Of a stretch of 64,000 bases of DNA, positions 14,728-58,944 are shown piece after piece (the first letter of the stretch is position 1; the number at the start of each line of letters is the position of its first letter). The position numbers were made by a program, and so were the translations under genes. Below the pieces are notes generated by a model, which saw only the letters and a program-made list of their open reading frames with translations, made no database searches and had not been told where the DNA came from. The stretch is from Mytilus trossulus (Eukaryota). Location: assembly GCF_036588685.1 (NCBI RefSeq), contig NC_086377.1, positions 79,422,001 to 79,486,000 of the forward strand, in the 5' to 3' direction.

Positions 14728-15468
14728 CTATCTCAATTAAGTATTATATACACTGTTAGTATCTCAATGCTAACAATGAGGAACTTTTATGCAAATTTAC
14801 AGCCTTTCTCCGTGTATTCTTATATTTGATATTCCTGCACTTAACAGATAGAGGATTGCTACAAAAGTGTAAGCAATGATTTCCCTTAAACAACTTTTCA
14901 AATTAAGATATTAGTTAAAACAAGTACAAATATGGACCAATTCAAGTACACCTTTTAGGGTGCGCTTGATTTTAGTGAATCAGTACGAGGGTTTCTCTTT
15001 TGTAAAGGTTGTTTGGGATTGTTTGCTAACAATAAACGCTAGCACGACATGGACAAACAAGCGAGGAATCTATTTTTCAGATGTTAACACGGAAATCTCT
15101 GTAATAAAGTCTATAGATTTTCTGTGAAAAAATTGGTTTGAGCTGCCACAAAATCCACATTTTCTATCTATATATTGCATTATTTAAAAATACATATAAT
15201 TGCTGTGAACGACGTTTCCCTGTGGTATATGTACAAAATGACAATCTCTTTTCTTCAGTATTTTTTGCTGTTATGATATTATTGCACGTTGAAAATTTCT
15301 TCATTCACAGGCCTAAAGAAGGAATCAGAAATGTTCATGAACATGATACACGACGCCATCCGCCGTACACTGCAATGTAGATTTCAGATTCATAAACATG
15401 GAGTAACTTAATTTGTTATGGGTATGTTTATTTCGAATTTTATTTTCAAGTTAGGCATCCCTTGTTTT

Positions 15469-15670
15469 TGTAACAATGTAAAACTTCGGAAATGTTTTAA
15501 TAGGATAACTTCCTACAATTACAACATAAAGTTATTTATCTACAAGGTTCACAATTGTTAATATCCGTAATCACAATATCCAACTGTACGACTCACACTA
15601 CCGGAAACACCTTCTCTCCTTTTCAACACCTAAAACTCGACCTAGTCCCGACCAATTTCAAGGTGTCACA
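15469..15670 (-). repeat. 3' LTR (202 bp)
   Basis: Begins TGTGACACC and ends TGTTACA (minus strand); its first ~60 bp match 21116-21176. Confidence 0.9.
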
Positions 15671-15674
15671 TAAT

Positions 15675-15684
15675 CCCCCCTTCT
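15675..15684 (-). promoter_or_regulatory. Polypurine tract
   Basis: AGAAGGGGGG on the minus strand, 4 nt upstream of the 3' LTR. Confidence 0.85.
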
Positions 15685-15770
15685 AAAAAAGACACGCCCT
15701 CGTGTCTTTATTATAATGTTTACATATCAGTTTCAAAATCCTGCAAATAAGCAGGCGGCCGACGCTCTCT

Positions 15771-17462
15771 CTATGGACGGACATGAACTTCACCATCATC
15801 ATCTTCTTCTACTTCTGAATTAATGTTTTCACTATCACCATCGACACTTTGATCAACACCATTATCATCATCTGCAATGCTAAGCTCATGAACTGAATTT
15901 AGCTCCTCGTCTTCGCTTCCAATATCATCAGTGCCAGTGTTTTCCCTCCTTGATTTATCAGGAGCTGCAAAACGCTGCTCCCGATCAGGATTGTGTCCCT
16001 TTCCTAAAACTGGCTGTTTGTTTTTAGGTTTAAATCTAGTATTTCTTCTAACTTTATTTGCCTCAATTCGAACTTCATTTTCCGGTTCAGACGCCACAAA
16101 TTTCTTCAATCGATTAAAGTGGACGATCTTTGATTTTGCATTTTGTTTCTTTATTTTGTAATCCACATCAGAAACTTTCTCTAAAACTACATATGGTTCC
16201 TTCTCCCTCTGACAATGAGGTTTGTGTGTTCTTCCTGGTTTTACCGCGGGATTGTATAACATAACTAAATCTCCTACACTTATTTGCTTTCCCGATATTT
16301 TCTTATCATTATAGTCCTTTTGCCTCTTTTGGGAGTAATTTATGTTCGTTCTAACCTTTTCAAATGCTATATTTAAATTCTGACGTAGAGATGTAACATA
16401 TTGGGTCTTATTACTTTCCTCTTGTGGACATTCCCCAAATACAACATCAATGGGTAATCGAAGTTCTTGTCCTAGCATTAACATTGATGGCGAGAATCCA
16501 GTAGTTTCGTTAACACTACATCTGTATGCCATCATAAGGAATGGTATCTGCTCGTCCCAATTCTTTTGATCTTCTTTCACATGCTTACTTAACATGTTAA
16601 GGAGCGTTTTATTAAACCTTTCGACTTGTCCGTCGCACTGAGGGTGATATGCAGTCGTTCTCTGCTTCTTTGATTCAAATACTATGCTGATTTCTTTGAT
16701 CAAGTTCGATTCAAAGTCTCTTCCTTGATCACTGTGTACGGCATATGGTGCTCCAAAGCGACAAATAAATTCCTCTACTAACTTTTTCGCTATGGTTTTT
16801 GCCTTGTGGTTACGAAGGGTAAATGCTTCTGTCCATTTAGAGAAATAATCTGATATCACTTATATATATTTATTACCCCTTGACGACGTGGGTAATGGGC
16901 CTAAAATGTCCATAGCTATTTTTTCTAGTGGGGCACCAGTTTTAACAGAAACCAAAGGTGCTCTTAAGTGTTTAGAAGGATTTCTCCGAGTAGCACAAGT
17001 TAGACATTCTTCACAGAATATTTCAACGTCTTGAGAACATCCAGGCCAATAAAAACGATCTTTCAGCTTCCTCAACATTTTCTTTGTCCCGAGATGTCCA
17101 CCGTCTATACCAGAATGCAATGTTTCCAAAATGTTCCGTCTTAATTCGGTAGGTACCAAGAACTGGTAGGCAGTCCCATTTGTGTCTTCGAATTTCCTGT
17201 ACAGAATATCATCTCTAGGAACTATATTTTCCCATTGACCAATCAGCCTCTTTACCGCACTTGAGTACCCTTTCTCCACAATTGGTTTATCACTACTAGC
17301 CGTTTTCAAGTCTTGAATCAGCTTTAAATCAACATCTTTCAACTGCGCCTTTTCCCAATCAATTTGATCACCGGCACAAACAGCTTGACAAAACTCACTA
17401 TCGCTTGTTATTCCGTCATCCTTTTCTTCTCTTTCTAATTGTGCAGTTGGTCGTCTAGACAT
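15771..17462 (-). pseudogene. Gypsy integrase region (frameshift at ~16860)
   Basis: HHCC finger (LHSGIDGGHLG...CEECLTC); DDE core (AMDILGP / HSDQG / QVERFN); GPY/F-like EPYVV; long acidic tail. Frameshift lies in a TA run. Confidence 0.93.
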
Positions 17463-17486
17463 GCCATCTGCATTATTATAGTTTGA

Positions 17487-18748
17487 TCACTTTCGATGAA
17501 CAATTTCCATGTCAAATTCAGATAGATATGCTTGCCACCTTGCTATTTGATCTTCCGGTTCCTTGAAGTTCCAGAGCCACGACAATGCCTTATGGTCTGT
17601 TCTGACTTCGAATTTATTTCCGAGAAGGTAATATCTAAATTTCTTTACAAAATACACTAATGCCAACATTTCCTTTTTTATTATTAACGATGACTTTAAA
17701 ATTTCGAATCCCTCACTGCAATCTTTAGACCAAACGGAGGTTTCCTCTTTTAATAGTAATTTATGGAGAGGCGAACAGATGAGGGAAAATCCTTTAATAA
17801 ACCGTCTGTAATAACTGGCTAGACCAATAAAGGATTCCAGTTCCCGAACATTAGTGGGTTGAGGCCATGATTTGATCGCTTCATTTTTTTCGGGGTCTGT
17901 TTGAATACCTTGATCAGAAATTATGTGACCAAGACACTTGACACTTCTGCCTGCAAAGTGACACTTACTAGGCTTCAATTTGAGGCCATTTTCTCTGAAC
18001 CGCTGAAACACTATTCCTTATCTTTCAACATGATCGTCAAATGTTGAGCTAAAAATTACCACATCATCCAGATAAATTAAGCATATTTCAAACTGAAGAC
18101 CTTTAAGAACATTTTCCATTAACCGCTGAAACAGACCTGGTGCACTTGTCAGTCCAAACGGCATAACATTGAATTCGTACAGCCCATACGGTGTTGAGAA
18201 TGCCGTTTTTTCCTTGTCGTCCTCTTCTACTTCAACTTACCAATAGCCATTGGCCATAACAACACATTAAAAGAATCTTGCACCAGAAAGCGTATCAAAT
18301 GTGTCGTCGATGCGTGGTATCGGGTATGCATCTTTTTTTGTAATTTCATTTACCTTGCGAAAATCCACACAAAAACGAGTGCTATTGTCCTTCTTCTTCA
18401 CTAACACATGTCAATGGGCGAAGACCATGGACTACTCGATGGTCTTATCACCTCATGTTCCAACATATCATGAATTAGTTATTTAACTTTATCTTTCTTG
18501 TGGAGTGGTATTCTCCTTGGGTTTTGTTTTATTGCAGCTTCATTAACAGTGTTAATACCATGTCTTACTAAGTCTGTTCGTCCAATATATGACGGGTCTT
18601 TCGAGAAGATGTCATTATACTCGAGCAATAATGTTTTTAATACCTCCCTTTCTCCACTTTGTAGGTTGGAATCTATGTTGAATGATGTACCAGGAGCTGC
18701 AATCTGCTGCTCCAGGGAGGGCTTACACTTGTGTTCCTTCACAGGCAA
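17487..18748 (-). pseudogene. Gypsy reverse transcriptase and internally deleted RNase H
   Basis: VMPFGL (~18160), IYLDD (~18063-18077), LKPSKC, FIGLASYYRRFI, VRTDHKAL. The TDAS-GAVLSQ block of RNase H is missing; multiple stops and frameshifts. Confidence 0.92.
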
Positions 18749-18808
18749 AAGGATTCCAACTGTCGTGTTTTATACATCGTTACATCCTCAGCCGAAACAT
18801 TCATAACT

Positions 18809-20301
18809 CTAATGATGCATAAATCCTTCCCTTCTGTTAACACATTTATAAGCTGCACAAACTTTGTCGTTATTTTCGAATCTCTGTTTTGGTTCAAATA
18901 AGAACGTTCCTGTCTTTTGAAACCCCCTTTCTTTCTTCTTCACCTTACCCGAAGGAATACACACGGTTTGTTTTAGATTTACTCTACAAACAGCAGCACT
19001 TCCGGTAGAGTAATTTACATCACACTCATTGTTATCAACTGAAATAGTCATTTTATTAAAATCTATTTTTGCATTATGCTTTTTCATAAAGTCTGTTCCC
19101 AGTAAACACTGGTGAGCTAAGTCTTTTGCGATTAATACTGTTTGCTTACACTGTACACCTTTAATCGAAATATTTACATCAATAACTCAATGTATATCAA
19201 TAATTTCGCTTTTGGCCGAAACCACTGTTGATTTACAAGGTGCTACTAAAATTTTACTCTGACTTTTAGTTTCAATTTCCTTGAACACATTTTAATGTAT
19301 AATAGTAAAAACTGAACCTGTATCTATCAACATTTCCGCAGGCGTGTTATTAACCAATCCTTTACATATCATTGATAACCCTGCACTGAAACAAGTATAA
19401 ATGTCCCTTGGGTCTTTAAAATCAGCCGATGTCTGACCCTCGACTTCGGCTAGTGGCCGTTTCCCGGACTGTTTAAATGTGGGACAGTCATTTCTCATGT
19501 GTCCCGGAAGTCCACAATTCCAACATTCTCTATTTTTGGGACAATTTCGTTTGAAGTGTTGGTCACTGCCACAAATAAAGCATTTATAGTCATTTTCATA
19601 GCGACCTCGACCTCTTCCTATTCCTGCAATATTTTGACCTCGTGACCTTCTTGCTTCTACTCTATCTTCCTTCATCATTGTCAATGCTTCATTCATCATT
19701 GTCATTAAAGCTGTTTCTTGTGTAGTAGTACTACATGCTCCTGCTGGCGGCTGAATAGAAGTGGTTGATTTATCTTTTCGAACTTCGAATTCCACTGTTT
19801 GCCAGTCGATTGCCATTCTGATTGCATCATCCAATGTCGCTGGCATACCATGTCTGAGTTTTAGAGTCATGTCGACATTTATTAAAGCACGGACATATTG
19901 ATCACGTGCTAATTCATCTCGTAATCCCGCCTCGATGGTGGGGTAGGCTTTCCTGGCCAATGTCCTTATTCTGTTACCGAGATTCAGAAGTGTGTCGCCT
20001 TGCAGTTGTTTTGTAGCATTAAATTTTGTTTTATAGAACTGAGGTTCTTTAACCGTTCTAAACCTCTTTTCTAAGGTGGCGCACAAGTTGGTCCAGTCTG
20101 TTTTTACTGCTGCTTCAGTGTCTTGATATACTTTTTATGCAGTGTCCCTAAGTCTCACTCCCATAAATTTACATTTTAAAATATTTCTGCGCACGCTTTA
20201 AAATTATCCTGCCAGTCCTTCCAATCCTCCTCTATTTCACCTCTAAATGGATCTGGCATAATGACTGGCTTCTTAATCCCAGCATGTTCTGTGTCAGCCA
20301 T
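18809..20301 (-). pseudogene. Gypsy gag-protease
   Basis: ATG at 20301 reads MADTEHAGIKKPVIMPDPFRGEIEEDWKDWQDNF (gag N-terminal motif); two CCHC knuckles (CFICGSDQHFKRNC, CWNCGLPGHMRNDC); protease LIDTGS in the same frame as the knuckles. Confidence 0.92.
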
Positions 20302-20434
20302 AGCTAACTGTTCCAAATATTGCATAAAAGTTACCAAAAAAAAAGCAAACTACTGTGTTACCGTAATTTTAGTCGTTTTTAAATTATATTGTCGAATTAA
20401 ATTTAATTCGGAGGTAGCACACTTTATTAGTTGT

Positions 20435-21030
20435 TTATGCCAACGTCTCTTCAAACTTATGCCACGATATTGTAAAACACCCCTTTAACAGTCCAGATTG
20501 TTTTCTTGAATTTTCAAGCTTTATGTCCGCATTTAGCAATGTTAGTTCTTTACCTAGTTTGGCCTGATCTGCCTGTAATTCCTTATCTGACGCACTACAC
20601 GTTTCACGTCCACTACTTTTATAACTCCTTGGTTTAAGTCTTAGGAAATCTCTTTTACAAAAGACAGTGTAGGAACTGTAATAAATCCAACCGATGCAGT
20701 TGGCAGTTCAGTTTTCATCTTCTCTTTAAAACTTTTTAGTCTATTGAAAACTGTTCTGCTTAAAACATCTGACTTTAATCTTAGATCTGTACCTTCCTTG
20801 TGGTGCTCAAACTTAGTAAATTCATTGATACCACATGCTATTTTAACTATAATACTTCGGTCTGTCCCTTTATACTCCCGCAAAATTGACAATGTTTCAT
20901 TCACAAGATCTTCAATGACAGCTCCTCTTTTAATTACATAACGGAATCGAAAATGTTCGTATTTAAATGAATCGAATCCACAGAGTCTTTTATCACCTGC
21001 TAAAAGTAATACTGGCTTGTTCCCGGACAT
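20435..21030 (-). pseudogene. SGNH/GDSL-hydrolase-like accessory ORF within the Gypsy element
   Basis: Block I-like VLLLAGDKR, block II-like RGAVIEDL, block III-like IVKIACGINEF. After a frameshift at ~20650 it continues RDFLRLKP...ELQADQAKLGKELTLLNADIKLENSR...TISWHKFEETLA* (stop at 20435-20437). Confidence 0.65.
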
Positions 21031-21115: not shown

Positions 21116-21176
21116 TTCTCTCCTTTTCAACACCTAAAACCTTCGACCTAGTCCCGACCAATTTCAAGGTGTCACA
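21116..21176 (-). repeat. Truncated 5' LTR (61 bp)
   Basis: Matches 15612-15670 apart from a 2-bp indel; the rest of the LTR and the PBS are absent. Confidence 0.9.
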
Positions 21177-21509
21177 TTTTAAACAAAGACGGATTCTTAG
21201 GGTTGCATACACACGAAGTATCATGTTACTTATTGGGATCTATGTAGCAAATTAACACAACTTTCCGTTGTTCGTTATTGACAAATAAGAACGTGCACTT
21301 GCTCATAAAAAAACATATAATCCTGTAGCAAATAGTCTAGAATCAAATTCATTGAAAAGATACCGGTAGTTCATGTTCATTAAATATCAAGACTTTAGCA
21401 GAAACAACTGTATTTGTAATATAATTACAGCACAAATGATCAAGCGTCTACGTGAACGGCGAAAAAGGCATATACGTCTTGACAAATACAACGACAGAGA
21501 GAGAAAACG

Positions 21510-27664: not shown

Positions 27665-28423
27665 CCTATAGGATTCTGATTTCACTTAAAAAAACATGAT
27701 TGATATCAAAGTAAGAGATGTGGAATAATTGCCAATGAAACAAGTATCCTTCAAATCTTGAATGAAATGGATGTAAGCAATTGTAAACAAACGCATGGCC
27801 TTCAACAACGAGAAAACCCCATACTATATTATACGGCTATAAAAGACATCGACATGAAACATAAACAAACTGTCTTAATCTATAACAAAACAATTTTTAC
27901 GAAAAGCAATTGTAACAGACATGAACAATCACTGAACTACATGATTCTGACTAAGGACGGGCTCACCAACAATGTGGCGGGTAAATCGTGTTAACAGACG
28001 TCAACAATCTATCTAACCTGGCATAGTCTTGAAATAGTAAAACGTAAAAATAAATTATTGAATGTTCACTTTTTTTTTAAATAATTGTGCATGTAATAAG
28101 TATAATAATGTGGACAATACTATCGAATTTATTAATTTGATCGAGTTGCGTATTAAACATCTCAACAGGGCGCATCAACACGCAGTAATATGTAGTGATA
28201 TATCTGACCAGAAAACATTGAAAAATATAAGAAATTCTGATTAAAAACAATCGACCAACTCTACATTTTTATATAAGTACTACATGTTCACCGTGATAAC
28301 AAGTATGACTTGAATGTTGACTCATCAAAACAGGAAGATATAGATTGTAAATATAAACCATTTTTTCTTGACATCTTCAGATACAAGTAGAAATGTGTCT
28401 GTCTTAATAAAATGTTTTGGCTT

Positions 28424-31220
28424 CTAATAATCATGATCATGTAATAATAGCGAGTTTTGGTATTCAACAGAATTAAATTGAAAAGAGTTCAACAAAATGC
28501 ATCAGACAACAGTAATCTGAAATATCTCATCAGGAAAATAAAAAGATTTTAAATCACAGACGAATACAAGTAATGTTTACCAATGAAACACGACCAGTCT
28601 CCCAAATAAAAAGACCAAACTCGGGAAATATATGTGATGAGTCAGACTGTACATTTCTGTTATTGTTGTTCATTTAGTTCGACCTTGAAAATATGTATAA
28701 ACAAGATAAATACTACGTGGTCAAAGTATAAGTTGAATGCTGAATCATCATAACAGGAAGATGAAGGGTGTGATTATTAACGATTTGAACTTGACATCTT
28801 CCGTATGTTACAAGTGGAAACATAATTTTATCTACATCAGCTTGGTTCGACCTTATTCATTGTATTATTCAATGCTTTCAATTTTGAGTGTAGTATACAT
28901 TGACTTAATAACGGATGAGGGAGGCTGATAATTTGAACACGTTTTTATTTTAATCTTAAGTAATAACACAACACGTTTCGAAATCTTGAAAAAAGCAAGG
29001 GTTGCATACATGTATAATTGTCATTTATAGTAAATCAAGTTTTGGATCTTGTTTATTATGAGTAATAAGTTCTAACTATTGGGGCTAGTTGGAATTTCTT
29101 TCGTCATATTTTATGTGTCCTGCGTGCTTTATTTCTTTACATACAGGTATTAAACTAATTTTTGATGGTCTTTTTCTTAATTAGATTAAATTTCTATACA
29201 TGTGAGAGAGTTGACATATCTTTTTATTTAGCAGCAGCAGCTAAACTATTCTCCATCAGTTCAGTTGGGCTATTTTTCAATGTAGCCAGTTGTCTTCGAT
29301 TCAATTGTATCGTACAGACAAGTAAGTTATTTAACGTGACACAGTATGATGGAGTTAGTACATTACATATTTGGTAATGAACAGTTATTTTGGTGAACAG
29401 TTAGGCAGACATAGCTTTATTAACTCGACATGTGACTAAATAAATGGATTATGACCAATAAACACTCAAAATTTACTGCAAGCATGTTTTTTTTATATAA
29501 CTATTCAGAAGGTAGATATAGGAGGATATGGTATGAGAGCCAATGAGACAACTCTCCATCCAAGTAACAATTTATAAAAAGAATTTTTACTTCAGACTCT
29601 GAAAAAAGTAAAATCACAAAAATACTGAACTCAGAGGAAAATCAATTTGGAAAGTCCATAATCACATGGCAAAATCAAAAAACAAAACGCATCAAAAACG
29701 AATGGACAAGAACTGTCATATTCCTGACTTGGTACAGGCATTTTAAATAAGCATTCAAGTGTTTGAAATAAGCATTCAACGTGTGTATGCTCTGATGAAT
29801 CTAGGAATCATATAATATTTTACAAAATATGCCAATAAGGCTACTTATTAAATCATTGTTAAAAAAAATGGATGTTATGTAGAAAGTAAAGTAACGAAAA
29901 TACCGAACTCCAACGCATATTCACAAATCATAAAGTGATTTATGAAATAGCAAAATCAAAAACTCAAACACAACTTACGAATGGAAAACAACTGTCATAA
30001 TCCTGATTGTTTTTACAGGAATTTTCTACTGTAGTAAATGGTGGATAAAACCTGGTTTATATGTAGCGTAATATGGATGACAATAAGGTTCTACTTGTGA
30101 AAAAAGAAACATTACCAAAGTATATGGGTAATCATTCTTAGGCAATGTTGTTTCTTTACCATATCAACATAATTTGAAAAATGTTCAAAGAAATGTTTAA
30201 GTGACATGTTTTTTTTTTAACATTTAACAACATTTTTAAATTTTGTGCATGCATCTTGAAAACTGAGGAAACATATTCAAACATCATTTTGTTTCATAAT
30301 GGGTTAACACAATTCTTTGAAAAATGTAGAAATGTTGTTACAATATACTCAAATAACATATTGCTGTTATCCAGATTAACTGTTATAGTACCGACAGTGA
30401 ACGTTACAAATTCAAGCTAAGGCTATTACCGACACTTTATAGACATGATGCTAACCGATTTTGGAACAAGTAACCAGCAGTTTGACTTTTCACGAATGTG
30501 ACCTACCGAATTAGACTATTTACCCCTATTTGTGACATTTTTACCTCTGTTATGTTCACACATCGTTGTCAATATAATGGAATTATATGCGAGTGTCATA
30601 CAAGTCAGAGGTTTAGCTAGCTATAAAACCAGGTTCAATCCACCATTTTCTACATAAGAAAATGCCTGTACATGTACCAAGTCAGGAATATGACAGTTGT
30701 TATCCATTCGTTTGATGTGTTTGGCCTTTTGATTTTGCCATTTGATTGGCGACTTTCCTTTTTGAATTTTCCTTGGAGTTCAGTATTTTTTTTAGATTTT
30801 ACATTTTGACAAACTGTTGAGATCTGAAAATATCTCACATTTTTACAACATATAAATGCGTCTGAGGATAATCAATACAAGAGAAATGAGATGTGTGGAG
30901 GATTGCAAACGAAACAACTATCTACTAAAGGTCAAGCTGATTTTTTTTAGGGTGGGTGGGTAAGCAAACACAATTAAAAAGAGGAAGGGGCATAATGATT
31001 TATGTGGTGAAAGTATTACGATATGCATGTCCAATGAGTATTATGATTGATATAGGAGGAATACCAGGTTATTTAGATAACATTTATCAAGTATAAACTT
31101 CAATTTTAATGGGCAATACTATAAGGTCCTGTGTAACCAAGCTTGGAATACTGTAAATTAAGAAATTATTGCGTAAATTTATTATTGGAATTTTGTCATT
31201 TAACACTAAAATTCGATTTT
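28424..31220 (+). repeat. Local segmental duplication, copy A
   Basis: Collinear with 51185-51720 plus 56919-59390 once copy-specific insertions are removed. Confidence 0.9.
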
Positions 31221-32241: not shown

Positions 32242-34595
32242 ACTCCTATTTTTACTTTTTTGCATCCATTTGGATGTTTAATAAGGTTTTCAAATAATCG
32301 TAACTTATATTACATAAAAGGGCAACATATTCCGTCCAATATCAGATGAAAATATATCTAGTAAGAATATTTGTATTCAAAATATTAAATGCACTTAAAT
32401 TGATGATTCTCTACATAATATGAAAACTAAAACAGTTTTAAAAGGTGATTATACGTCGCGTAAGGTGTTTGTGATAATAAAACGTTTTGATTTCCAGGTC
32501 GCTTTTTTGAACAGCGGTATACTACTGTTGCCTTTATTTGTTGCATTTATTAGAAGTTTCGTAATCGATAACTATATAGATGCATGTATGAAAACCCAAA
32601 TCTCTCATGTTGTAAAGAGCTTTTTAAAATTCGAACGAATGCTGCAGACCCAAATCACAATTAACATATCCACCCTTCCTGTGACAAAATTATACAATGA
32701 ATGTTAAACTTGCTATGTATTCCATTATAAATATTATTTGAAGTATGTCCTAAATTGTTCATTTTATTAAATCCGTTGAAATGTCACACTCGCCGATTTT
32801 TTTTACATTTCGGCGTAATTGGTAAGTGTCTAATAAAAAAGAGTAGGCATTTGCAGTCTTTTCTACGATTTGAAATTTTATTTACACGTGAAAAGATGTT
32901 TTTTAAGTGTATGAAAAAAAAATATGTAGAAGTTTCAAGGTAAATTATATTGAAATATAATAAACGCGATCTTTTTGTTTGTGTCTAGTTGTGATTTCAC
33001 TGCGACAAGTTCATAAAACAGAGGTCGATTGAAGAAGCCAAAAATTGGACGTCGATTTGAGAACAACGAAAAAAGACGTCGAATAGAGGAACATAACATT
33101 GGCCGTCGATTTGCAATGTTATCTTATTGTGACGTCAGATTTAGACATCGATTTGATGAACGGACGTCAATTATAGTTCGGACGTCCACCTGAGTCTTAC
33201 ATCTATAAACGATAACACGTTGCCATTTGTAAAACAACCACGTAGGTTATATATTAGACTACACCCAAAATGCAAAAAAAATCCAGTCATGCAATATGTA
33301 AGATAACATTTGACTACTCGGTAAATATATAAGTCAAACTTGGCAAATCTACAAAGATCACAATCGGCCAATCTACACAATAACCACTTTGGTAATAAAT
33401 AAGATGAGCAGTGGCCAATCTGACAAAATGACCACTTGGGTATTGTAATAGATAGCACTGTTTCAATCTCCATAATTACCACTTGGGTAATATAACAGAC
33501 AATACTCTGTCATTTTACAAATTAACCCCTCTGGGAAAAAATCAGATAACCCTCGGCAAATATAAAAAAAATATTACTTAGGTAATACATTAGATAACAT
33601 TTAACCAATCTTCACACAAAAAAAAAAAAAAAAAACACCACTCGAGCAATATATAAGATACATTTTATAAAACTCGACCAATAACTCGGACATAAAGATG
33701 ATGACACTCGGCCAATGTACAAATGACTACTCCAGTAATTTATAAGTATATTTTCATAGATTCTGTCACATTACATTAAGTTCGACCTTGAACACCAGGT
33801 TTTAAATATAAGCAGCATATGCACTGCGTGATAACATTATAATTTGAATGTTGACTCATCATAACAGGAAGACATAGGTTGTAAATATAGATATTTACAC
33901 TTGAAATCATCCGTAGGTTTCAAGTAGACACGCTATATTCTATAAATTAGCTAATGTTAACCTTATATATTGTACGTTTTAATAAATTTTATTATGAGTG
34001 TAGTAAATATTTACTATATTATGGGGTAATATGAAAATAAAAAGTTATCACCAGATGCAACATCTATAAACACAACTTGTTTCGAGAAATTATCAAACAA
34101 GAGGGTTGAATCCATTAATTTCATTTCATCAAAAAAGTTCATCCAACAGCAAGCTATAAAGGGCCTCAAAAATTACTAATGTAAAACCATTCAAACGGCA
34201 AAGCCAACGGTCTAATATATATAAAAACGAGAAACGAGAAACGAAAAACACGTATGAACTACATGAACAGACCAAAACTACTGTACATCAGATTCCTTAC
34301 TTAGGACAGGTGCAAACATTTGCAGCGGGATTAAACGTTTTAATGGTACCAAACCTTCTCCCTTTTCTGAAACAATAACACATACATTGTAATCACAACA
34401 TAGAAAAGACAAACTATAAAATATTAATTGACTTTATTAATCGACGAAATATATCCTTTGCTGTCCTCCCTCTGTAGTTTTAAAAAATCATTGTTCTATT
34501 ACATGTTGTTTGGAGTCATTGAGACAAACAACATAAGTAATCGATGGATTTTATTATATGTTGTCTGTTGACATTGAGACAGAAAACATATTCAA

Positions 34596-35880
34596 TCACA
34601 AATATAGGTGCTTAGGGTGCAATACGGTCTTTCCCTAAAACATAGACAGAATGACCAGCATTCACAATTATAGGTACTTAGGGTGCAATACGGTCTTTCC
34701 CAAAAGCATAGACAGAATGACCAGCATTCACAATTATGGGTACTAAGGGTGCAATACCGTTTTTCCCTAAAACATAGACAGAATGACCAGCATTCACAAT
34801 TATAGGTACTTAGGGTGCAATACCGTCTTTCCCCAAAGCATAGACAGAATGACCAGCATTCACAATTATATTTACTTAGGGTGCATTACCGTATTTCCCT
34901 AAAACATAGACAGAATGACCAGCATTCACAATTATAGGTACTTAGGGTGCAATACCGTCTTTCCCTAAAACATAGACAGAATGACCAGCATTCACAATTA
35001 TAGGTACTTAAGGGTGCAATACGGTATTTCCCCAAAACATAGATAGAATGACCAGCATTCACAATTATAGGAACTTAGGGTGCATTACCGTCTTTCCCCA
35101 AATGATAAACAGTATGACCAACATTCACAATTATAGGTACTTGGGGTGCAATACGGTCTTTCCCTAAAACATAGACAGAATGACCAGCATTCACAATTAT
35201 AGGTACTTAGGGTGCAATACGGTCTTTCCCAAAAGCATAGACAGAATGACCAGCATTCACAATTATGGGTACTAAGGGTGCAATACGGTCTTTCCCCAAA
35301 ACATAGATAGAATGACCAGCTAGCATTCACAATTATATGTACTTAGGGTGCATTACCGTCTTTCCCTAAAACATAGACAGAATGACCAGCATTCACAATT
35401 ATAAGTACTAAGGGTGCAATACCGTCTTTCCCCAAAGCATAGACAGAATGACCAGCATTCACAATTATAGGTACTTAAGGATGCAATACGGTCTTTCCCC
35501 AAAACATAGACAGAATGACCAGCATTCACAATTATAGGTACTTAAGGGTGATATACGGTCTTTCCCCAAAACATAGACAGAATGACCAGCATTCATAATT
35601 ATATGTACTTAGGGTGCGATACCGTCTTTCCATAAAACATAGACAGAATGACCAGCATTCACAATTATAGGTACTTGCGGTGCAATACCGTCTTTCCCTA
35701 AAACATAGACAGAATGACCAGCATTCACAATTATAGGTTCTTAGGGTGCAATACCGTCTTTCCCTAAAGCATAGACAGAATGACCAGCATTCACAATTAT
35801 AGGTACTTAAGGGTGCACAACGGTCTTTCCCCAAAATTTACATAGATAGAATGACCAGCATTCACAATTATAGGTACTTA
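34596..35880. repeat. 66-bp satellite, left part (~19 monomers)
   Basis: ggtacttagggtgcaatacggtctttccctaaaacatagacagaatgaccagcattcacaattata. Confidence 0.97.
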
Positions 35881-38800
35881 CACTACTGGACGAAAAAACA
35901 ACTGTCCATACCAGTAACAGTCGTTGTACGACTGTCTTAGTCTGTATAAGACCAGTAATGACTGTCAAATCTGTCATATTTAGTTGCAACAGTTTATTTA
36001 TGTCTGTTCCAACTTTTCTACGGGTTGTGAAAGTCAAAAAATGCTACCATCAGTCATTTCAGAACTGTTGCAGTGGTTTACGGTGTTGTCACAGTCAAAA
36101 TCTATTTATTACAGTCTTTCTAATAGTTGTGGCAGTTGCATAATGTCCGTCCCAACCTTTTTATTGTTGGGACAGTTAAAATTTGTTTGTGTCAATTTTT
36201 CAGACGTTGATGCAGTCAAAAAATGTTTGTCACAACGTTTTTAGAGTTGGGACAGTCGTTAAATGTTTGTTACAACTTTCTAAAGGTTGGCACAGTCATT
36301 AAATGTTTATAACAACTTATAAAAGGTTGACACAGTCGTTAAATGTTTAAAACAAACACTTCATAGGTTGCTACAGTCGGTAAATGTTTAATACAAATAT
36401 TTTAGTGTAACGGTAGTCGGCCATCAGTGAACAAAAAAATCACGTCTCACCCGGCTCTCAAGATTTGATTTTGTTGTGAAATAGTCCATTATTTATACTA
36501 TTATCGTCTATTGTGCGATTGTAAACTTGTTTTTTTCTGTTTATTCAGTTATTTTGCGATCGTTGTTTGTCTTTTGTCGTTTTCCGTTTATTGCCGTAGC
36601 ATTGTCCGTTCATTTTTGACAGTCATGTGCGTTTGACTTTAAATAATTCTACTGATATCCTTACTTTTTATTTTATAATATCTGTTTAATAACATTTTCG
36701 TTCATAACTGGTTTTAAAAACCAGAAGCTTTTGCATAAAATAGAGTTTAAATAGTATTGCAGAAGAATGAGAAGATGACAATGAATTCATTCAAATTTAT
36801 ACTTGACAAAGTTTTGATAAATTCTGCGCAATAGAAAAATGTACAAGGGTGTACCTGAAATAAATTAAAAGATTATGACTAAGTTATCAATATTGTACAG
36901 CATAATAAAACAGTTTTAATTCGAATTACACCAAGAAGGACATTTCCGATGATTAAAAAAATAATTAGTAAAATTTGTCAAGTTTCATTAAAAACGGAAA
37001 ACAATTCTTCACCGTAAACGGTTCACCCTCTTTATTTTTTTGTCGGCAAAACACCCCGGACCTGAGGTCGGCAAACTAAATTTTTACACAGGTAACTACA
37101 GATGTTAGACCACATGTTCAATAATCTGAGCTGGAAATTACAATCGGTGAGTAGAAATTATCAATATTTTACAGCATTTCTATCCAATAATCATGGATTC
37201 ATAATTTTGAAGGGAAAATGTGCACATTTGTCGGCTTACAGACCAATTACAACTTGTTCTCATTGGCGGATCCAAAAGGGGGGTCGGAGGGTTCGAACCC
37301 TTCCTTTTTTTTTTGGCTGCTCAATTGCATTTGAATGGGTCATATAGTTAGACCCCCACTTTTTTGTCCTGGGTTGGACCCACCTCCCCCCACAGGCACA
37401 TGTCTCGTGCAAAATTGCATATTCCAGGGAAAATATAGGCTTTGGGCTTCAATGTTAAAGTTGTGCATCATAATAAATCGTTGAAAGTATTAAAGGACAC
37501 CGTTCCCTTCCCCCTATTATCATGTGTATATCATTTATACCCTTAATTATTTGAATACAGGAAAGGTTACTCTATATCTTTCCATTTTGTGGGCAAAAAT
37601 TTGGTTGATTATATAGGGAATCACTCAAGCGTGACTGGATCTGTGCCCCTAAGGGCAGTCAGTGTACCTTGTCCTTTCTGAAAAGTTCTGGATGTGCCAC
37701 TGACATATACATCATGTAGTGTACATATTGTATGTTAATGTATTGCTAACTCAGGTCCTAAATTTGCATGAAATACTTGTCACTGGACATTTTATTACCA
37801 ACAACCAACCGATCTTTACATGAATGTATCCACATAAATGTGTTTCTTTTCATGCATATGCTGGATTACTAGTATTTCCCTGGTTTTGCTTTATCAGCTG
37901 ATAGTTTTTGTTGATTAAGTATGCATTGTGATGTCACAATGTTCATAAAAAAACCATGCATAGTACAAAAACATATGATTTGATCTTAAAAGTGTTATGA
38001 AAATTATTAACTATAAAATTAAATAGTGACTTGTTAAGCAAGTGTCCACTTTCATTTAGATTTTAAATAATTCTGAAATCATGGACAACAAAACATTAAT
38101 ATATATTTTTGATAATCTGATAATAGCAGGCATTGAAAGTGAATAGGTATTTTAGAAATGGTTTAAAATAGCATTAATCATCAAAATAAAACAATATCAT
38201 TAAACTAATGTTCCTGAAACAAGGCACAGAGTCATAAACAGTTGCCATTTAAACACTGTTAATTAAACAAAATGTGCTAATTCAATTAGTAATTGTTTTA
38301 TTATGTAGTACATGTACTACATTGTTTAAAAAACAAATATTAAAAGAGCAAAGCTAGCATCATATTTTTTTTCTTTTTAGATTTAACATAGAATATATAT
38401 TAAATCACTTTAAGTTGTTAATACTTTGAACCTAAACTATATATTTTCATGTCAAACTTTTATATAAATTGTGCCCTGTCAGCATTGTTTTTCCAAATTC
38501 ATTTGTGCCATACATGTTATCTAACTTACAAGTAGTAACATTCAATGGTCTTCTTATTTATTCCGCAATTATTAAAGACCTTCTAATCATGAGTCATATT
38601 TTTTGACACGCATTCAATTGTGTTTTGGTTACTTTATTGTGCCTAACTGTTGGGTTGATGCATCATTGATATATCCCACATAGATCTCCTTTGATCATGT
38701 GCATTCACATACGATTGCTGATTTTTTGCATTTTCTTCATAATCATGATAATGATTTTATGTTAAAATTCAATATGTCAGGAAAACATAACAAAACATCT

Positions 38801-48668: not shown

Positions 48669-49122
48669 TATGAAATGGTTGTAGCTATCATATTATAACT
48701 GTTACAACTTTTTTCTGCGTTTAAACAGTTTATTCGTGACTGTTTCAACGTTTTCCGTGTTGGGACAGTAATTAAATAACTGTTACAACTTTCTAATGGT
48801 TGCATCAGTTTTATTACGACTGTGACAACCATTTAGGCGTTTAATCAGTTTATTTATGACTGTTGCAACGTTTTTCGAGTTGGGACAGTTGTAAATCAAC
48901 TGTTACAACTTTGAAATAGTTGTATCAGTCCTTTAATGACCGTGACAGTTATTTCTTGCGTTGTTACAGTCGATTTATGTTGTAGACAAACATTTTTAAA
49001 GTTGGGACAGTTACAAAAAAACTGCAGCAGTGAAATTTAACAACTGTTACAACTTTAACAAACATTATCAGTCTTAGAACGACTGTTACTGGTATGGACA
49101 GACGTTTTTTCGTCCAGTAGTG

Positions 49123-50036
49123 TTAGGGTGCATTACCGTCTTTCCCCAAATGATAAACAGTATGACCAACATTCACAATTATAGGTACTTGGGGTGCAAT
49201 ACGGTCTTTCCCTAAAACATAGACAGAATGACCAGCATTCACAATTATAGGTACTTAGGGTGCAATACGGTCTTTCCCAAAAGCATAGACAGAATGACCA
49301 GCATTCACAATTATGGGTACTAAGGGTGCAATACGGTCTTTCCCCAAAACATAGATAGAATGACCAGCATTCACAATTATATGTACTTAGGGTGCATTAC
49401 CGTCTTTCCCTAAAACATAGACAGAATGACCAGCATTCACAATTATAAGTACTTAGGGTGCAATACCGTCTTTCCCCAAAGCATAGACAGAATGACCAGC
49501 ATTCACAATTATAGGTACTTAAGGATGCAATACGGTATTTCCCCAAAACATAGACAGAATGACCAGCATTCACAATTATAGGTACTTAAGGGTGCTATAC
49601 GGTCTTTCCCCAAAACATATAGATAGAATGACCAGCATTCACAATTATAGGTACTTAGGGTTCATTACCGTCTTTCCCCAAATGATGAACAGTATGACCA
49701 ACATTCATAATTATAGGTACTTAAGGGTACAATATGGTCTTTCCCCAAAACATAGACAGAATGACCAGCATTTACAATTATATGTACTTAGGGTGCAATA
49801 CCGTCTTTCCCAAAAACATAGACAGAATGACCAGCATTCACAATTATTGGTACTTAGGGTGCAATACCGTTTTTCCCCAAAACATAGACAGAATGACCAG
49901 CATTCACAATTATAGGTACTAAGGGTGTTATAGGTCTTTCCCCAAAACGTAGACAGAATGACCAGCATTCACAATTATAGGTACTTAGGGCGCAATTCTA
50001 TCTTTCCCCAAAAGGTAGACAGAATGACTAGCATTC
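49123..50036. repeat. 66-bp satellite, right part (~14 monomers)
   Basis: Same monomer; resumes exactly in register after the CACTA (ggtacTTA | TTAgggtgc). Confidence 0.97.
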
Positions 50037-51720
50037 AGTTAAAGAAACAATAGTCTTTCCTAATAGGAAGAAATTCCCCAACAGTTACTTATAGTATATT
50101 TTACATTTTAAGTTGACTTTTTGTCAAAATTTGTTTTAACTACGGTAATTGTGAACAAGAAAAATTTAGTCAAGAATTTATATCCTTGAAGTTAGTAAAT
50201 TTTGATCTTGTTTTATCAAATAGGCTCTGCTAAAAAAAAGATAAATGTAGCTGTGTGTATATTTAAAAACACAAATAAGTAAGAGGATGAAAAATAATGT
50301 AAAAATGAAGCATATGTAAATAAAAATTTAAATAAGTTAAAATGAAACATATGTAAATACAAATTTAAATAAGTAAAATTAATCATATGTAAATAAAAAT
50401 TTAGATAAGTATAAAAATAAAAAAACTTCTAGAAATTAAACAAAAATACTTCAGACTTTGAATCTAAATAAAAAATAAAAACTCCAATAATGATATATCT
50501 TAAAAATGTGAGAAGCTTTAATTTCAAACGTCTGTGTGAAACATCATCTACGTGTGAAACATCATCTGTTTCATGCAACATCATGGAGAGTCACATATCC
50601 TCCCCTGTAGACAACGTATCATGATGACATAAATGAATTCAAATTCATTTGATAACAAAAACAAAGTTAAAATGGTGTGACATTAAAAATAAAGGTGATC
50701 AGTAAATTATATTGGTCACAATTTTATGTAAATTTAACTTGTATTTATAAATAAATATTTATATAGAATAGTCACCAAAGAGACTATACTTGTATCTTTA
50801 AGATATTTCAAATCAACTGTGCTTGTGACCGTCATAAATTTGTATTTGGACTATTAAAATCAACAGATCATTATTTCATGGAAATATGAATAATATATCC
50901 TGATTGTAACATCATGAAAAATCATATATCCACAATGATGGACAACTTATCATGATGACTTCATCAAAAATATCTCGACCAACAACTTTAACCTGAAGCG
51001 GGACAGACGACCGAACGAACGGACGAACGGGCGCACAGACCAGATAACATAATGCCCATCTAATATTGTAGGTGGGGCATAATAATAGTATTGTTATTGT
51101 TGCTGGTGTGTGTCTTCCAGATTTCATTGCAAACACAATTATGATTTGGGGGGGATGATGAAAAAAAATGTTTTTGTTTCTTGTTTCTAATTATCATGAT
51201 CATGTAATGATAGCGAATTTTTGTATTCAACTGAATTGTATATAAAAGAGTTCAACAGAATGCATCAGAAACCAGCAATCTGAAATATCACATCAAGAAA
51301 ATAAACAGATTTTGAATCACAGACGAATATAAGTAATGTTTATCAATTAAACACGATCAGTCTCCCCCCAAAAAAGACCACATTCGGGAAATATATGTGA
51401 TAAGTCAAACTGTACATGTCTGATATTGTTTTTAATTTAGTTCGACCTTGAAAATATGTATAAACAAGATAAGTACTACGTGGTAAAATTATAAATTGAA
51501 TGTAGACTCATCATAACAGGAAGATGAAGGGTGTGATTTTAACGATTTGAACTTGACATCATCCGGAGGTTACAAGTGGAAACATAATTTTCCTTACATC
51601 AGCTTGGTTCGACTTTATTCATTGTATATTCGATGCTTTCAATTTTGAGTGTAGTATACATTGACTAAATTTTGGATGGTGGAGGCTGAGAATTTGTAGA
51701 CGTTTTTATTTTAATCTTAA

Positions 51721-54700
51721 GAGCCAATCCGCCAGAAAACCATGATTTTAATTAAACTCTAAACACAATTAGTAATAAAATGGCTTATAAAATCATTAAA
51801 AAATGTAAAATAAATTTGTATAAAAAATGAAATAAGACGTTTTTGTACTGCAAGTGCAAAAATCAATAAATTGTCTGAAACCAGGGAGTACTTCTTTTAT
51901 GCTCTTCCATTGACTTATCTCCCTTTGGCAACATATTAGCTCCCGGTGATGGTTTGGCAGACAAATGTTTACAGTGAAGTTTGTGTCTTGAATGATCTAG
52001 GAGGAGCATGTTGGCTATTCCATCATCATACAACTACATATAACAAAGTATTTAAGATATCTGAATGCAATGAAGACCAAATAGCATAACAACTGCCAAG
52101 AAATTTGAGAATAATGAAAATAATTTACCAGACAATAATTTAGTGAATAAACATGATAAATATTGATTGGAAAAAACAAGTCAATGAACTGCAAGAGGTG
52201 TTCTTAGATTTCAACTAGCAAAACAAAAATATTCTAAATCATTCTTAGTAAAATAAAGTGAGCGAAAGGAAGACATTGCTTATGCTTGCACTAAAATGGA
52301 GATTGAGAGTGTCAAAACTGTCTGGCTTTACAAGATCTTACAACTGTCTGGTACACCAAAAATAAATCAAAGACACTCTCTCTACCGTTGTACTAAAAGC
52401 AGCATTGGAAACTAGCATTGGTAAACAAATATATTCGTACAGATACAGACTACCATTCATCTCAGAAGTCTGAAAATACTGAAAACTATGGTGTAGAATT
52501 TACAGCCAGACTTTTTATTTTACATAAAAAGAGGAGTGGTTTATTTTCCTATGGTTGTTATAAGATCTTGTCTTAGACATGTTAGAATAATTATGTTTGA
52601 AGTACAGAGACTTTCATGGATTTCATTGACATTACAATACATTTGTATGGTCAAGCAACATGTCAACATCCTGTCCAACCCTCTTCCAGCAAAGCCAAAG
52701 CTGACCAAGGATTTTCACCATTTCATAACAGGCTGTATACAACCACAGGAGGAGTTACTTCAGTAGGAACAGGTACAAATCTTACAATAATTTTTTATTG
52801 TTCCTTATAGTCAATCCGAAATTAGGGAACCAAGATTTGATACATCATATAGCTAGATTAAGAAAAGGAGGGGGGGGGGTGGAAGGGGCATGTGAATATT
52901 CTTTTACACCTAACTAGTTTCTAAGACATCTTATTTATTTTCAATGACAAAGTGCATACAAATAATTTATATTCCTTATCTACATTTTCTGTCTTTGGAC
53001 CATTTGATAATAAAAAAAGAGGGAGGGTCAAAATAGTTATATGTCCTTGTCAGCTAAGGACAGAATTTTAATTTTAAAGCTATAAACCAGGGTACAATAT
53101 AATTATAAAAATAAAACAAATTTATAGACCATAATCATTATAATAATCAAAATTTCTTTCAATATAATAATATTCAATATAAAGCAGGTCAGGGTTTTTT
53201 TCACTTCCCCTAAGTTATATTTTCAGTTCTAACTGGAAGTTGTTTATCTCTTTAAATTTGTCTACTAAAAAACTTTTATCTCGTGGAAAAGACTCATAAA
53301 AATACATGTTTTAAATACAACATAATGTTCATGTAACACTAGACAATTTATTCCAGAGAATAATCTTTTTTAATGAACTATTCATTCTTGTAGGCCATGG
53401 ATCCTAAAAAAACAACAAAAGCATTGCAAAGTTTTGTAAACTTTTATTTTAGGACCCTACATTTGTACATTTAGATGTATGTAGATGACTTATAGTGCCC
53501 TTTTTAAAAGAAAAAAATATATATTTAAACTACATGCATAGTGATGCTTCATGTACACAACCCTAAATTTCCTGTTTGGTATATTTTATTTCATGAAAAA
53601 CAAAATTGAAGAATTATTTTATAGTTCACACTTCTTATTTGTAGGGTTATATGCCAGCAGGTATACAATCCAGATGAATTTTCGAGTAAGTGACAATAGC
53701 CAGGTATGGAAAAGTAAACAACCGATACCGGAAACACCGGAAGTAACATGCACGAGAGGCACTATTATGGGTTTTGTGCATGAGATGCACATGCTATGGG
53801 TTATCAGCCCGGGTGGGAAATTATGGCTTGTGTACTTCCGTTCATTACACATATGCAAAAGCTATCATAGCAATGCTAAGTATTTGATAAATTAATTTAA
53901 TTGTTTGTATACAATGTAATATATGGGAATTATAAAGTATATAATAACATTATTATGCATGTTAAACATCAGTCTTATTGAAAAGTCTTTGTTTACTTTA
54001 CTTTACTTATTTAATTTGTAGTACAATGTTGGGCGGCTTTTATTTCCATTCAACAGCTAACAACGACTAATGAACTGTTCATACATTCCTTTTCAAATAT
54101 CAATGAATATAAAAGGGGGAGATTTGTATTGGTACTTTTGAAGATATTTCACCTGTTTGATTAATTGATTGGTTGTTGGTTCCTAATGTTCAATGTCAAA
54201 TGGTTCATGCATATTTAGGACTAGAACAAATTGAAATAAATACATTATTTGGGTTCTTTAAATTAATATGCTCAATCTAACAATGTATGAAGATGTATTA
54301 GATGTTGCAATTGGGACTTACAGTAACAATTGTCAATTTTATTTCCTGTCAGTGGTACATATGAAATAAAAAAAATGTGGTATGATTGCCAATGAGAACA
54401 ACAAATGGAAGTTTTTAACGACCTTGACTGGCTATACAGCCCTTGCACGGTCGGTAATGAGAACAAATGACATTGAAGTAAAGCTATAGGTCTGCATACG
54501 CCTTATGGCCTTGAACAATGAGCAAGACCCATATTGCATATATATGTATATTCACCCATAAAAGGCCCCAAAATAAGAAAATGAAAAAATATGAAAATTA
54601 ACAGCCTGATTTATGTATGTAATTTTGTGGTTTTCAGATCTAGACTTGCTGCTAACCATTCTGTCAACAACAACTGAACTTTCACAGCAGTCAACATCAG

Positions 54701-56914
54701 ATTGAGAGACTGATAATACTTATGACAGAAACAACTTTAACCAACCACACAAGCAACAGAAACTTTCCAAATTTAAAACATCAGTTAAATCTTCCATGGG
54801 ATGATGTTTCAAAAAATAGCAGTTCATCATTTATGGAAATTTTAATATTATGGTTTTTCTTTTACAAGAAAGTTAATGTACACTTGTTTTATAGTAAAAC
54901 CTTGCCGTTCGAGAAACCCACATTCAACTACATGTATATTTAAATTTGAAAATTCATGTGATTATTTAAATTGTTTTTTTATACAGCAATTTTAACAACT
55001 ATCCAATTTCAGTCAAAATTCTATATAAATTTTGCACTAGTTTATATAGACTAGGTTATTTGTTTTTCGTCTAGTTGTGCGATTTTTTATAGATGCATTT
55101 ATGATTTTCATGTTTGTATTGATCACATTGCAGCACCATAGATATAGGTACCTGGCAAATGTTACCTCGTTAGCATACTAGGCTCAAAGACTCATAAATC
55201 AATTTCTATCTCTTAGTGTCTGTAGAAATCATCTCTATATTGTAACTGTTTACCATGGTTTAAAGTTTTCTCTTTTGAACCATTATTGTAATAACTTTAG
55301 AACAAGTGTCATACATATATATTATATATAAAAAATCAACATGACAAGATCAAGTACCCAAAATTTTTCTGAATGAGTGGACATAACATCTATGAGCTAT
55401 TGTCCCTGAAATGTGTAAAGTAGTAGGTCCAGTAAGACCTCTTTTTGGCCCCAAAACATAGCAGTTTTACAAAGTAAAATTTTAGTTATTTATTGGACAG
55501 TAGAATGCTTTTGCTACATAAATATGGGCTGTTTTTGACAATACAATGCACATATATCGGGTACTAGCACCATTAAATCATTCTAAATTACTGAAATCTT
55601 CACAATTCTAGCATTTTAGTTAAATTTAAGGCGGTTTCCATGTAAAACGAAAGTGGCCGCATTCGTGTTCATCCTTAATATTGAAATGTAAGTTGTATTT
55701 GATGATAATACATAACATACATAGAGGTTGTGGATGACCACAGATGCGGCCACTTTCATTTTTGACAAAAAACATCTGAAAAGTGACATTTTTCGGTATA
55801 TTTGGTATATTTTTCATATTTGAGCTTAATCAGTTAAAATCTTTCACATAACTAATTGATTCAACTGAAATAGAAACTTAAGTGTTTTAAAAGTAGTCAA
55901 AATCTTTCGACAGACGAACCTGAAATTTGAGGACAAAATCGGTCCTTACCAGACCTACTCCTTTACAAATTTTCACATTTTTTTGCTATTACCTGACAGC
56001 TTTATTAATATATTATAAGAATAAATTGCAAAAATGGTCTGAAGAAATGTCTTGTACAGTCTGAACTTTTTCTGAAGTGTTTAACTTCTTTTATTTTAAT
56101 TCTTTGTTTTTTAGATATGGTTTTTTTTGTCGTTTTTAAGTGCACAATTTGTCAACATGTTCAATGCAAGCTATATCGGCTCCTTGGAGCCTATAGATTT
56201 ATAATAAATAATTTGTATTTATGTATGATTATTTTCTTAATGTATTAAATGAAACATTAATTATTATTTTCCATTTGTTGTTATACTTATTTATAAGTCC
56301 AGACACTATCATATGTCAGATGTTACAAATGAGACGGCAAAATTGACAAAATTTGAATATGCAGGCTACCCTATTTTGTTGTGCCATATACTAGACACCA
56401 ACATTATTTGCCGAGCTCAATATTTTTTTTGATAAGGTATATATAGTTATACTTTGCAAGCAGACATGTTATTTTATAATAATAATATGATCTTGGAGTA
56501 TTTTGGCTCTGAAAGATGACCAAAATCAGCAATTTTGGACATGAGGCTAAATGAGACATATTGAAAAGGTTAGATAATACATACACTTAATAGACAGCAT
56601 TGTTATTTCTATGCATTCTTACACTTAATGTGATGTATTACTAGGAACAACTATCAAAAAACTATGAATATTGCCATATTTTTTGTATTTAAACCAGCGA
56701 AATATGCCAAAAAGGCTTATTTTTGTCGTTATCGAGCAATCTCATCTATTAAAAGATGGCGCCTAAAAAAATACAGATCGGTTCAATATTTCCCAAAACA
56801 AATTTGTGTGGTTATTTATATCAATAAAGTGCACCAATGTGCCAAATATGAACTAATTTGGCCAAAGTGGCATTCGGACGGTTTTGCATGGTTTTCTAGC
56901 AGATTGATTGGCTC
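51721..56914 (+). mobile_element. Decayed Sola3-like DNA transposon (5.2 kb)
   Basis: GAG...CTC termini; TIR GAGCCAATC(...)CGCCAGAAAACCATG; flanks TTAA / TAAA; empty site 'aatcTTAAgtaataac' at ~28952-28967; cysteine-rich N-terminal transposase-like remnants at ~51975-52080 and 52591-52772. Confidence 0.7.
55419..55962. mobile_element. Kolobok-like MITE nested in the Sola3-like element
   Basis: TIR agtagtaggtccagtaag / cttaccagacctactcct. Confidence 0.65.
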
Positions 56915-58118: not shown

Positions 58119-58160
58119 CGGCACTGATGAGTCTTATGTAGACGAAACGTGCGTCTGGCG
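58119..58160 (+). ncRNA. Type I hammerhead ribozyme, in a ~175-bp insert at 58019-58194
   Basis: CGGCA-CUGAUGA-GUCU(UAUGU)AGAC-GAAAC-GUGC-GUC-UGGCG. All core nucleotides present; one G-G mismatch in stem I; predicted cleavage after C58155. Confidence 0.85.
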
Positions 58161-58902: not shown

Positions 58903-58944
58903 CGCCAGACACGCGTTTCGTCTACAGAAGACTCATCAGTGACG
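58903..58944 (-). ncRNA. Type I hammerhead ribozyme, in a ~250-bp insert at 58869-59124
   Basis: CGUCA-CUGAUGA-GUCU(UCUGU)AGAC-GAAAC-GCGU-GUC-UGGCG. Intact core and stems; predicted cleavage between 58908 and 58907. Confidence 0.9.

Follow-up and report, generated by a model that had tools for sequence, protein, structure and literature searches.

Why would a retrotransposon carry a gene with the sequence blocks of an SGNH/GDSL esterase between its 5′ LTR and gag? In the window, by which we mean the whole 64,000-nucleotide stretch of Mytilus trossulus DNA analysed here, the sequence-only reading had placed a frameshifted open reading frame, here called ORF0, on the same strand as gag, between a 5′ LTR remnant and the gag ATG at 20301, and had recognised in it the SGNH-like blocks LLLAGDKR, RGAVIEDL and GINEF. 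The frame, its position, its frameshift and its blocks were all confirmed in the window, but ORF0 is longer than had been supposed: the remnant does not end at 20435 but runs on to a stop at ~20350, and its counterpart in a sibling element, L008, has 261 codons rather than about 200.

ORF0 lies within a ~5.7 kb Ty3/Gypsy element on the minus strand, flanked on both sides by a 4-bp target-site duplication, AAAA, at 21177..21180 (5′) and 15465..15468 (3′), identified by comparison with the sibling; 4-bp duplications also surround L008, L022, L023 and L026. Read along the minus strand, the element begins with the first ~61 bp of the 5′ LTR (21116..21176; 59/59 aligned bases equal the 3′ LTR), followed by the ORF0 remnant (20350..21030, with its start ATG at 21030), a decayed SGNH/GDSL esterase gene recognised by the open counterpart in L008 and the fold of the sibling protein, and by a TGGTAA hexamer directly behind the ORF0 stop (20331..20336). 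Then come gag, with two CCHC knuckles (19450..20325, broken near 20180; a second in-frame ATG stands at 20325), assigned by Pfam and the 298-aa sibling gag, and pol (15720..19460), which in the Pfam matches has the order PR-RT-RH-IN with an integrase C-terminal domain and is interrupted by several stops and frameshifts. The pol domains matched were RVT_1, RT_RNaseH, Integrase_H2C2, rve and Integrase_p58_C, with a weak protease match (E 0.22). A polypurine tract (15671..15684) and a 202-bp 3′ LTR with TG...CA ends (15469..15670), the former read from the window sequence and the latter from that and the LTR search, close the element.

The order of gag and pol is that of Ty3/Gypsy, and the element has the direct TG...CA LTRs, polypurine tract and short target-site duplication of that group; the PBS is present in L008 and deleted in the window copy. 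There is no env ORF in the window element: only ~36 bp separate the pol stop from the polypurine tract, leaving no room for env or for an ORF3, and no dUTPase was seen with Pfam. The window element is a degenerate copy of a Ty3/Gypsy retrotransposon without env. Elsewhere in the window, a 66-bp tandem repeat forms two arrays ~13 kb apart (34480-35908 and 48991-50021), and copies of a MITE-like composite repeat, 88-93% similar to one another and containing inverted arms, are dispersed over ~28300-30900 and 51200-59200.

Searching the host genome with the LTR gave seven matches: two in the window, two bracketing L008, and three weaker ones on C1, C4 and C8, at which neither ORF0 nor gag was found and which are uninformative on ORF0. 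L008 is a full-length, 6.3-kb element on C9 with the same LTR as the window element and the order LTR, tRNA-Leu-type PBS, open 261-codon ORF0, gag, broken pol, LTR; its two LTRs are identical at 201/203 positions. Because this sibling has the segment open and intact, ORF0 is native to the element.

Comparison with L008, to which the window copy is about 96% identical in nucleotides, also shows where that copy is damaged. L008 reads GDSR, RGA, GINE and DGLH; in the window the first block is LLLAGDKR, with an AAA Lys codon at 20991-20989, the frameshift near 20653 is a 4-bp deletion, a 101-bp deletion near 20457 takes out DGLH, and ~197 bp are missing that in L008 make up the remainder of the 5′ LTR, the PBS and some of the leader. 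Window ORF0 against L008 gives a dN/dS of 0.79 over 126 readable codons, near neutral, as is expected of decay, and Lys stands at the nucleophile column in none of the 111 aligned sequences with a residue there. The Lys, the frameshift and the missing DxxH are lesions private to the window copy, not features of the lineage. The sequence-only reading was thus right about the Lys nucleophile and the lack of DxxH in this copy and wrong in tentatively extending them to the lineage; GDK, whose fixation it had raised as a question, is not fixed. That the lineage encodes a catalytically dead pseudo-esterase, as the GDK and the absent DxxH of the window copy by themselves would suggest, is barely conceivable beside the Ser and DGLH of so close a sibling.

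We used the natural L008 ORF0 protein for homology searches, which returned 23 close homologs and 148 clusters at E<=0.001. Residues were counted over 123 sequences of 195-420 aa (L008 and 122 of 169 proteins), non-gap cells only: Ser occupies block I in 108/111, Gly block II in 117/118, Asn block III in 95/120 (Cys in 24), and Asp and His block V in 117/119 and 116/118, respectively. In the 101-sequence alignment used for folding, all three residues of the Ser-Asp-His triad are present in 95 of the 98 homologs that could be scored, contrary to the earlier suggestion of a dead, Oskar-like protein. The SGNH/GDSL sequence blocks (Ser, Gly, Asn, DxxH) are therefore present family-wide, though not in the window copy itself, and an Oskar-type dead SGNH protein was rejected because there is no lineage-wide loss of catalytic residues.

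Structure prediction agreed with these blocks. AlphaFold2 modelled L008 ORF0 with a pLDDT of 95 and a pTM of 0.91, and the model has a three-layer alpha/beta SGNH fold; the structural matches listed for it by Foldseek/VIA-align are SGNH-fold proteins, the best among them being 4rw0 (Z 17.9, to 18.2; rmsd 2.2 over 169 residues), so the structural hit that the sequence-only reading had asked after is a strong one. The predicted SGNH core is elaborated by two beta-hairpins, the second of which lies in a region with a net charge of at least +4 in 95/100 homologs; the median pI of the homologs is 9.4. No signal or transmembrane segment was found in ORF0, and a hydrophobic window >1.8 occurs in just 3/101 homologs. 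On that ground we rejected ORF0 as an env homolog; the idea that it acts in place of env is only compatible with the element, which has no room for env, yet ORF0 is not env-like in build, lacking signal and transmembrane segments.

Pfam found no family in window ORF0 or L008 ORF0 and unrelated weak matches only in 17 close members, while Lipase_GDSL matched 6/101 members at E<=0.01; as Pfam is blind to most members, standard annotation misses the family. Profile searches of the PDB gave nothing significant (best E 0.17 and 0.93; 4c1b, the ZfL2-1 LINE esterase, at E 3.9), 133 pattern matches for ORF0 in viral contigs yielded none that was confirmed, a BFVD search returned remote phage SGNH domains only, and looking up the clusters of ten homologs gave no names. 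The closest relative with a name is P0293, a gene model from Mytilus coruscus with 89% identity, and among the Atlas look-alike clusters that have a recorded phylum annelids and molluscs predominate. An acidic tail ending W-x-F-K-R, often followed by basic residues, occurs in 21/101 homologs spread over distant sequences, and several further homologs end acidic-W-K-R; the W-x-F-K-R tail is absent from the window's family. Normal ORF0 very probably encodes an active esterase, soluble and basic, that works for the element.

A basic hairpin would suit RNA no less than lipid as a ligand. It could mean that ORF0 mainly binds or chaperones RNA, with catalysis secondary, in the manner of an Oskar that has kept its active site. 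Besides the charge of the hairpin and the high pI, the match of the model to the Oskar OSK domain (5a4a; Z 13.2, rmsd 3.1, 164 residues) speaks for such a role; OSK ranks 38th among the matches listed, however, below active hydrolases, and is itself non-catalytic (PMC3905857), whereas ORF0 has kept its triad, and few columns are as conserved as those of its catalytic residues. Gag, moreover, already has two CCHC knuckles, and the LINE esterase is described in the accessible part of PMC3905857 as not binding oligo(A) RNA. We consider a primarily RNA-binding ORF0 quite improbable.

Is ORF0 a feature of one element or of a lineage? Within the host, ORF0 is also carried by a second family, L022-L026, whose LTR differs and measures 245 bp, and public contigs add two more, L030/L027 and L031; the four families share 37-50% ORF0 identity. 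Genomic context was drawn from 15 ORF0-matching loci, with ~148 homolog clusters outside that set, and in 11 of the 15, the window included, across all four families, ORF0 stands directly before gag. The other four are L025 and L028, which are compatible but incomplete, L029, whose match is weak and short (23 residues), and L046, a distant and decayed homolog. This last (L046:1754-2347) is 25% identical and has no gag or pol match in the 9.9 kb around it; it may derive from another element type or be a remnant, and distant ORF0 members may sit in other element types. As a control we took 40 of 150 listed host RT matches, picked to span different families, and the ORF0 profile matched 0/40 of these other Gypsy copies (best E 0.96).

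A quick RT tree (91 rows, 221 columns) combined copies from the host with pol homologs that are unnamed or only loosely named, and no reference elements; it used 45/114 pol homologs and left out L023 and L026, which have short RT stretches. A branch with an SH-aLRT of 87 separates the six ORF0 rows, together with five pol homologs of unknown context, from the rest, and a single ORF0 change suffices on the tree, a count that 0/500 shuffles matched or bettered, although near-copies favour this outcome. ORF0 is under purifying selection: its dN/dS is 0.18-0.37 in five pairs from family B, which includes L022, L023 and L028. Between families dS is saturated, and ORF0 dN (0.47-0.66) is similar to gag dN (0.51-0.56). 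A Gypsy sub-lineage gained ORF0 between PBS and gag, probably once.

These data bear on two ways in which ORF0 might be foreign to its host element. A nested LINE was rejected, as the sequence-only reading had anticipated in proposing a Gypsy lineage with a 5′ SGNH-fold ORF0, since ORF0 is stand-alone inside LTR elements and holds its position before gag family-wide, in all four families. That it is a one-off nested insertion or neutral cargo might be argued from the few copies and from the ORF3s of rotifer LTR elements, for which the accessible text of PMC5408684 reports no clear departure from neutrality within the genome; with the same position in four families whose synonymous sites are saturated, open frames and a conserved active site, we regard this as extremely improbable.

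Some observations on these loci stand apart from the question of origin. The contigs L030 and L031 are catalogued under a Sedimenticola bin; as both are LTR retrotransposons, they are probably contaminating animal host DNA. Short tandem ‘EQQ.AAP’ repeats occur in pol of L030 and L008. Three predicted proteins (P0021, P0022 and P0024) join the first two thirds of ORF0 to the beginning of Gypsy RT; these are probably deletion derivatives, and as predictions they may be a further sign of the linkage between ORF0 and Gypsy. The PBS is similar to the 3′ terminus of a tRNA-Leu(AAG) gene of the host: of the PBS-pattern matches, the first six gave no tRNA in ARAGORN, and a tandem array matching the pattern gave tRNA-Leu(AAG). 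This array (L125; G000:C2, ~47.07-47.18 Mb) has a 1290-bp unit and, in the 3 kb examined, each unit holds a tRNA-Leu(AAG) and an opposite-strand gene that ARAGORN calls tRNA-SeC.

In 11/12 ORF0 loci examined (the window, L008, L022-L024, L026-L028, L030, L031 and L048), representing all four families, the ORF0 stop is closely followed by the TGGTAA hexamer, against 2/31 ORF0-less Gypsy leaders and four occurrences in ~20 kb of coding sequence, the motif having been chosen after looking at the sequences. Its resemblance to a splice donor, or 5′ splice site, is our own reading of the letters. In family B the ORF0 frame is open for 302 codons (L022:7517-8422 and L023:7542-8447, both minus strand; L028:820-1725, plus strand), and has no in-frame AUG before the active site; upstream the frame continues across the PBS and into the LTR, so that translation may begin at a non-AUG codon or on a spliced leader.

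A short intron could alternatively join ORF0 in frame to gag, so that some Gag would carry the esterase as a matrix-like N-terminal domain. The M. coruscus gene model P0293 makes just such a join at the same place, and the conserved donor-like hexamer near the ORF0 stop would suit it; but the join in P0293 is itself a prediction, and a hexamer behind the stop gives no fusion. Four runs, searched as contigs only, contained no ORF0-gag splice joint, and one contig, which we guess to derive from RNA, spans the stretch unspliced; no carrier of ORF0 recorded as RNA was among those listed, and these results have no bearing on expression. L031 has two in-frame stops there and no clear acceptor, and among 7998 candidates for longer, fused ORF0 forms the one match was a gene model. 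We judge the fusion very improbable.

What, then, might an intact esterase do for the element? The account we favour, and think somewhat more probable than the others together, is a joint one: an intact 5′ SGNH esterase gene in an env-less Gypsy sub-lineage, with the layout, the fold, the intact catalytic residues, the restriction to one RT group, the purifying selection and the window-specific decay described above, coupled to action at a membrane. In this mechanism the basic surface and basic beta-hairpin of ORF0 would attach it to anionic membranes, where it would hydrolyse an acyl or acetyl ester; Gag/RNA assembly, or particles already complete, might thereby be brought to, or helped through, a membrane compartment. 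The model is drawn by analogy with the ZfL2-1 esterase of a LINE, which slowly hydrolyses short esters and binds anionic lipids by surface charge (PMC3905857). The mechanism taken by itself, membrane docking with ester hydrolysis that aids assembly, trafficking or exit, is a tentative proposal, plausible though short of probable. The analogy is not one of close homology, as the LINE-specific His191 aligns with Ala in ORF0.

A competing account also takes ORF0 to be an active esterase and directs it at a host substrate, for example by taking acetyl or acyl groups off a lipid mediator, a glycan or a protein, which would blunt host restriction with no direct role in assembly. The intact triad under purifying selection suits this, as does the encoding of ORF0 as a separate ORF and not a Gag domain; among the solved folds closest to it are those of sialate O-acetylesterases, PAF acetylhydrolase and carbohydrate esterases. 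These structural matches are nonetheless tied at 10-18% identity and so are uninformative on substrate, and the strong basic character with a conserved basic hairpin suggests polyanion binding. We hold a host substrate to be unlikely, if less so than the RNA-binding and fusion alternatives.

SGNH esterases have been recruited by other retroelements, and the comparisons that follow rest on the accessible parts of the papers cited. They are found in the ORF1 proteins of LINEs and Penelope-like elements (PMC3905857, PMC4120745), in Terminons (PMC6431247), behind the recombinase in amphibian Ngaro elements (10.1101/2021.08.05.455354) and as ORF3 of rotifer LTR elements (PMC5408684, PMC5718144); what they do for retroelements is described as an open question (PMC5408684, PMC3905857). 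Closest in build is Vesta of bdelloid rotifers, likewise an LTR retrotransposon without env, whose SGNH/GDSL ORF stands apart, keeps its catalytic residues and has no transmembrane domain; in Vesta, however, the esterase is ORF3, behind pol, in rotifer-specific, dUTPase-bearing lineages (PMC5408684), whereas ORF0 lies between PBS and gag, in elements with no dUTPase seen and with molluscs and annelids as hosts on record.

The ORF1p esterases of CR1/L2/RTEX and Penelope elements resemble ORF0 in lying at the 5′ end of a retroelement, in their GDS, G-x-N and DGLH blocks and in a basic surface, but there the esterase is a domain of an ORF1p that stands in for Gag, and ORF0 is an extra gene beside a normal Gag (PMC3905857, PMC4120745). 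ORF0 is ~90 residues longer, with two beta-hairpins, and it is in the weak, non-significant sequence alignment with 4c1b that the conserved Ala faces His191; 4c1b is not among the structural matches listed, an absence that excludes nothing. The MDG1/412 elements are, like those with ORF0, env-less Ty3/Gypsy with accessory ORFs upstream of gag (10.1101/2025.03.14.642691). Their sORF1 and sORF2 have ~110 and 70 aa, and sORF2 is transmembrane and fusogen-like, unlike ORF0 with its 240-300-aa enzyme fold and no transmembrane segment; the word ‘esterase’ does not appear in the main text of that paper. Ngaro elements also combine gag and RT with an added SGNH ORF whose function is unproven; they belong to another retroelement order, with YR and split repeats and with the SGNH ORF behind YR (10.1101/2021.08.05.455354).

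The full-text literature searched, with most subscription papers outside it, yielded no Gypsy element in which a stand-alone SGNH ORF lies between PBS and gag, though Repbase/Dfam entries and supplements could already record one. The accessible text of surveys of mollusc and annelid LTR elements and of env (PMC6238403, PMC8556966, PMC13524379) makes no mention of an esterase or hydrolase, and that of PMC2774666 holds nothing further on such an arrangement. The ORF0-gag arrangement is thus real, built from known parts and apparently unreported. It is decidedly unlikely, though it would be the most far-reaching outcome, that this is an undescribed old mollusc and annelid Gypsy lineage in which a lipolytic enzyme in the 5′ accessory slot, occupied in MDG1 by a fusogen-like protein, provides an env-independent means of targeting, remodelling or crossing membranes, possibly from cell to cell, with expression of ORF0 versus gag switched at the conserved hexamer behind the ORF0 stop.

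Several unrelated retroelement groups have picked up SGNH esterases, and the ORF0 lineage adds an apparently separate arrangement to them. It offers a deep family with a confident fold and a conserved active site, and its close Gypsy relatives that lack ORF0, present in the same genome, can serve as natural controls; and because ORF0 is a single-domain protein and very probably soluble, the lipid, RNA and substrate hypotheses for what such esterases do would be testable in vitro.
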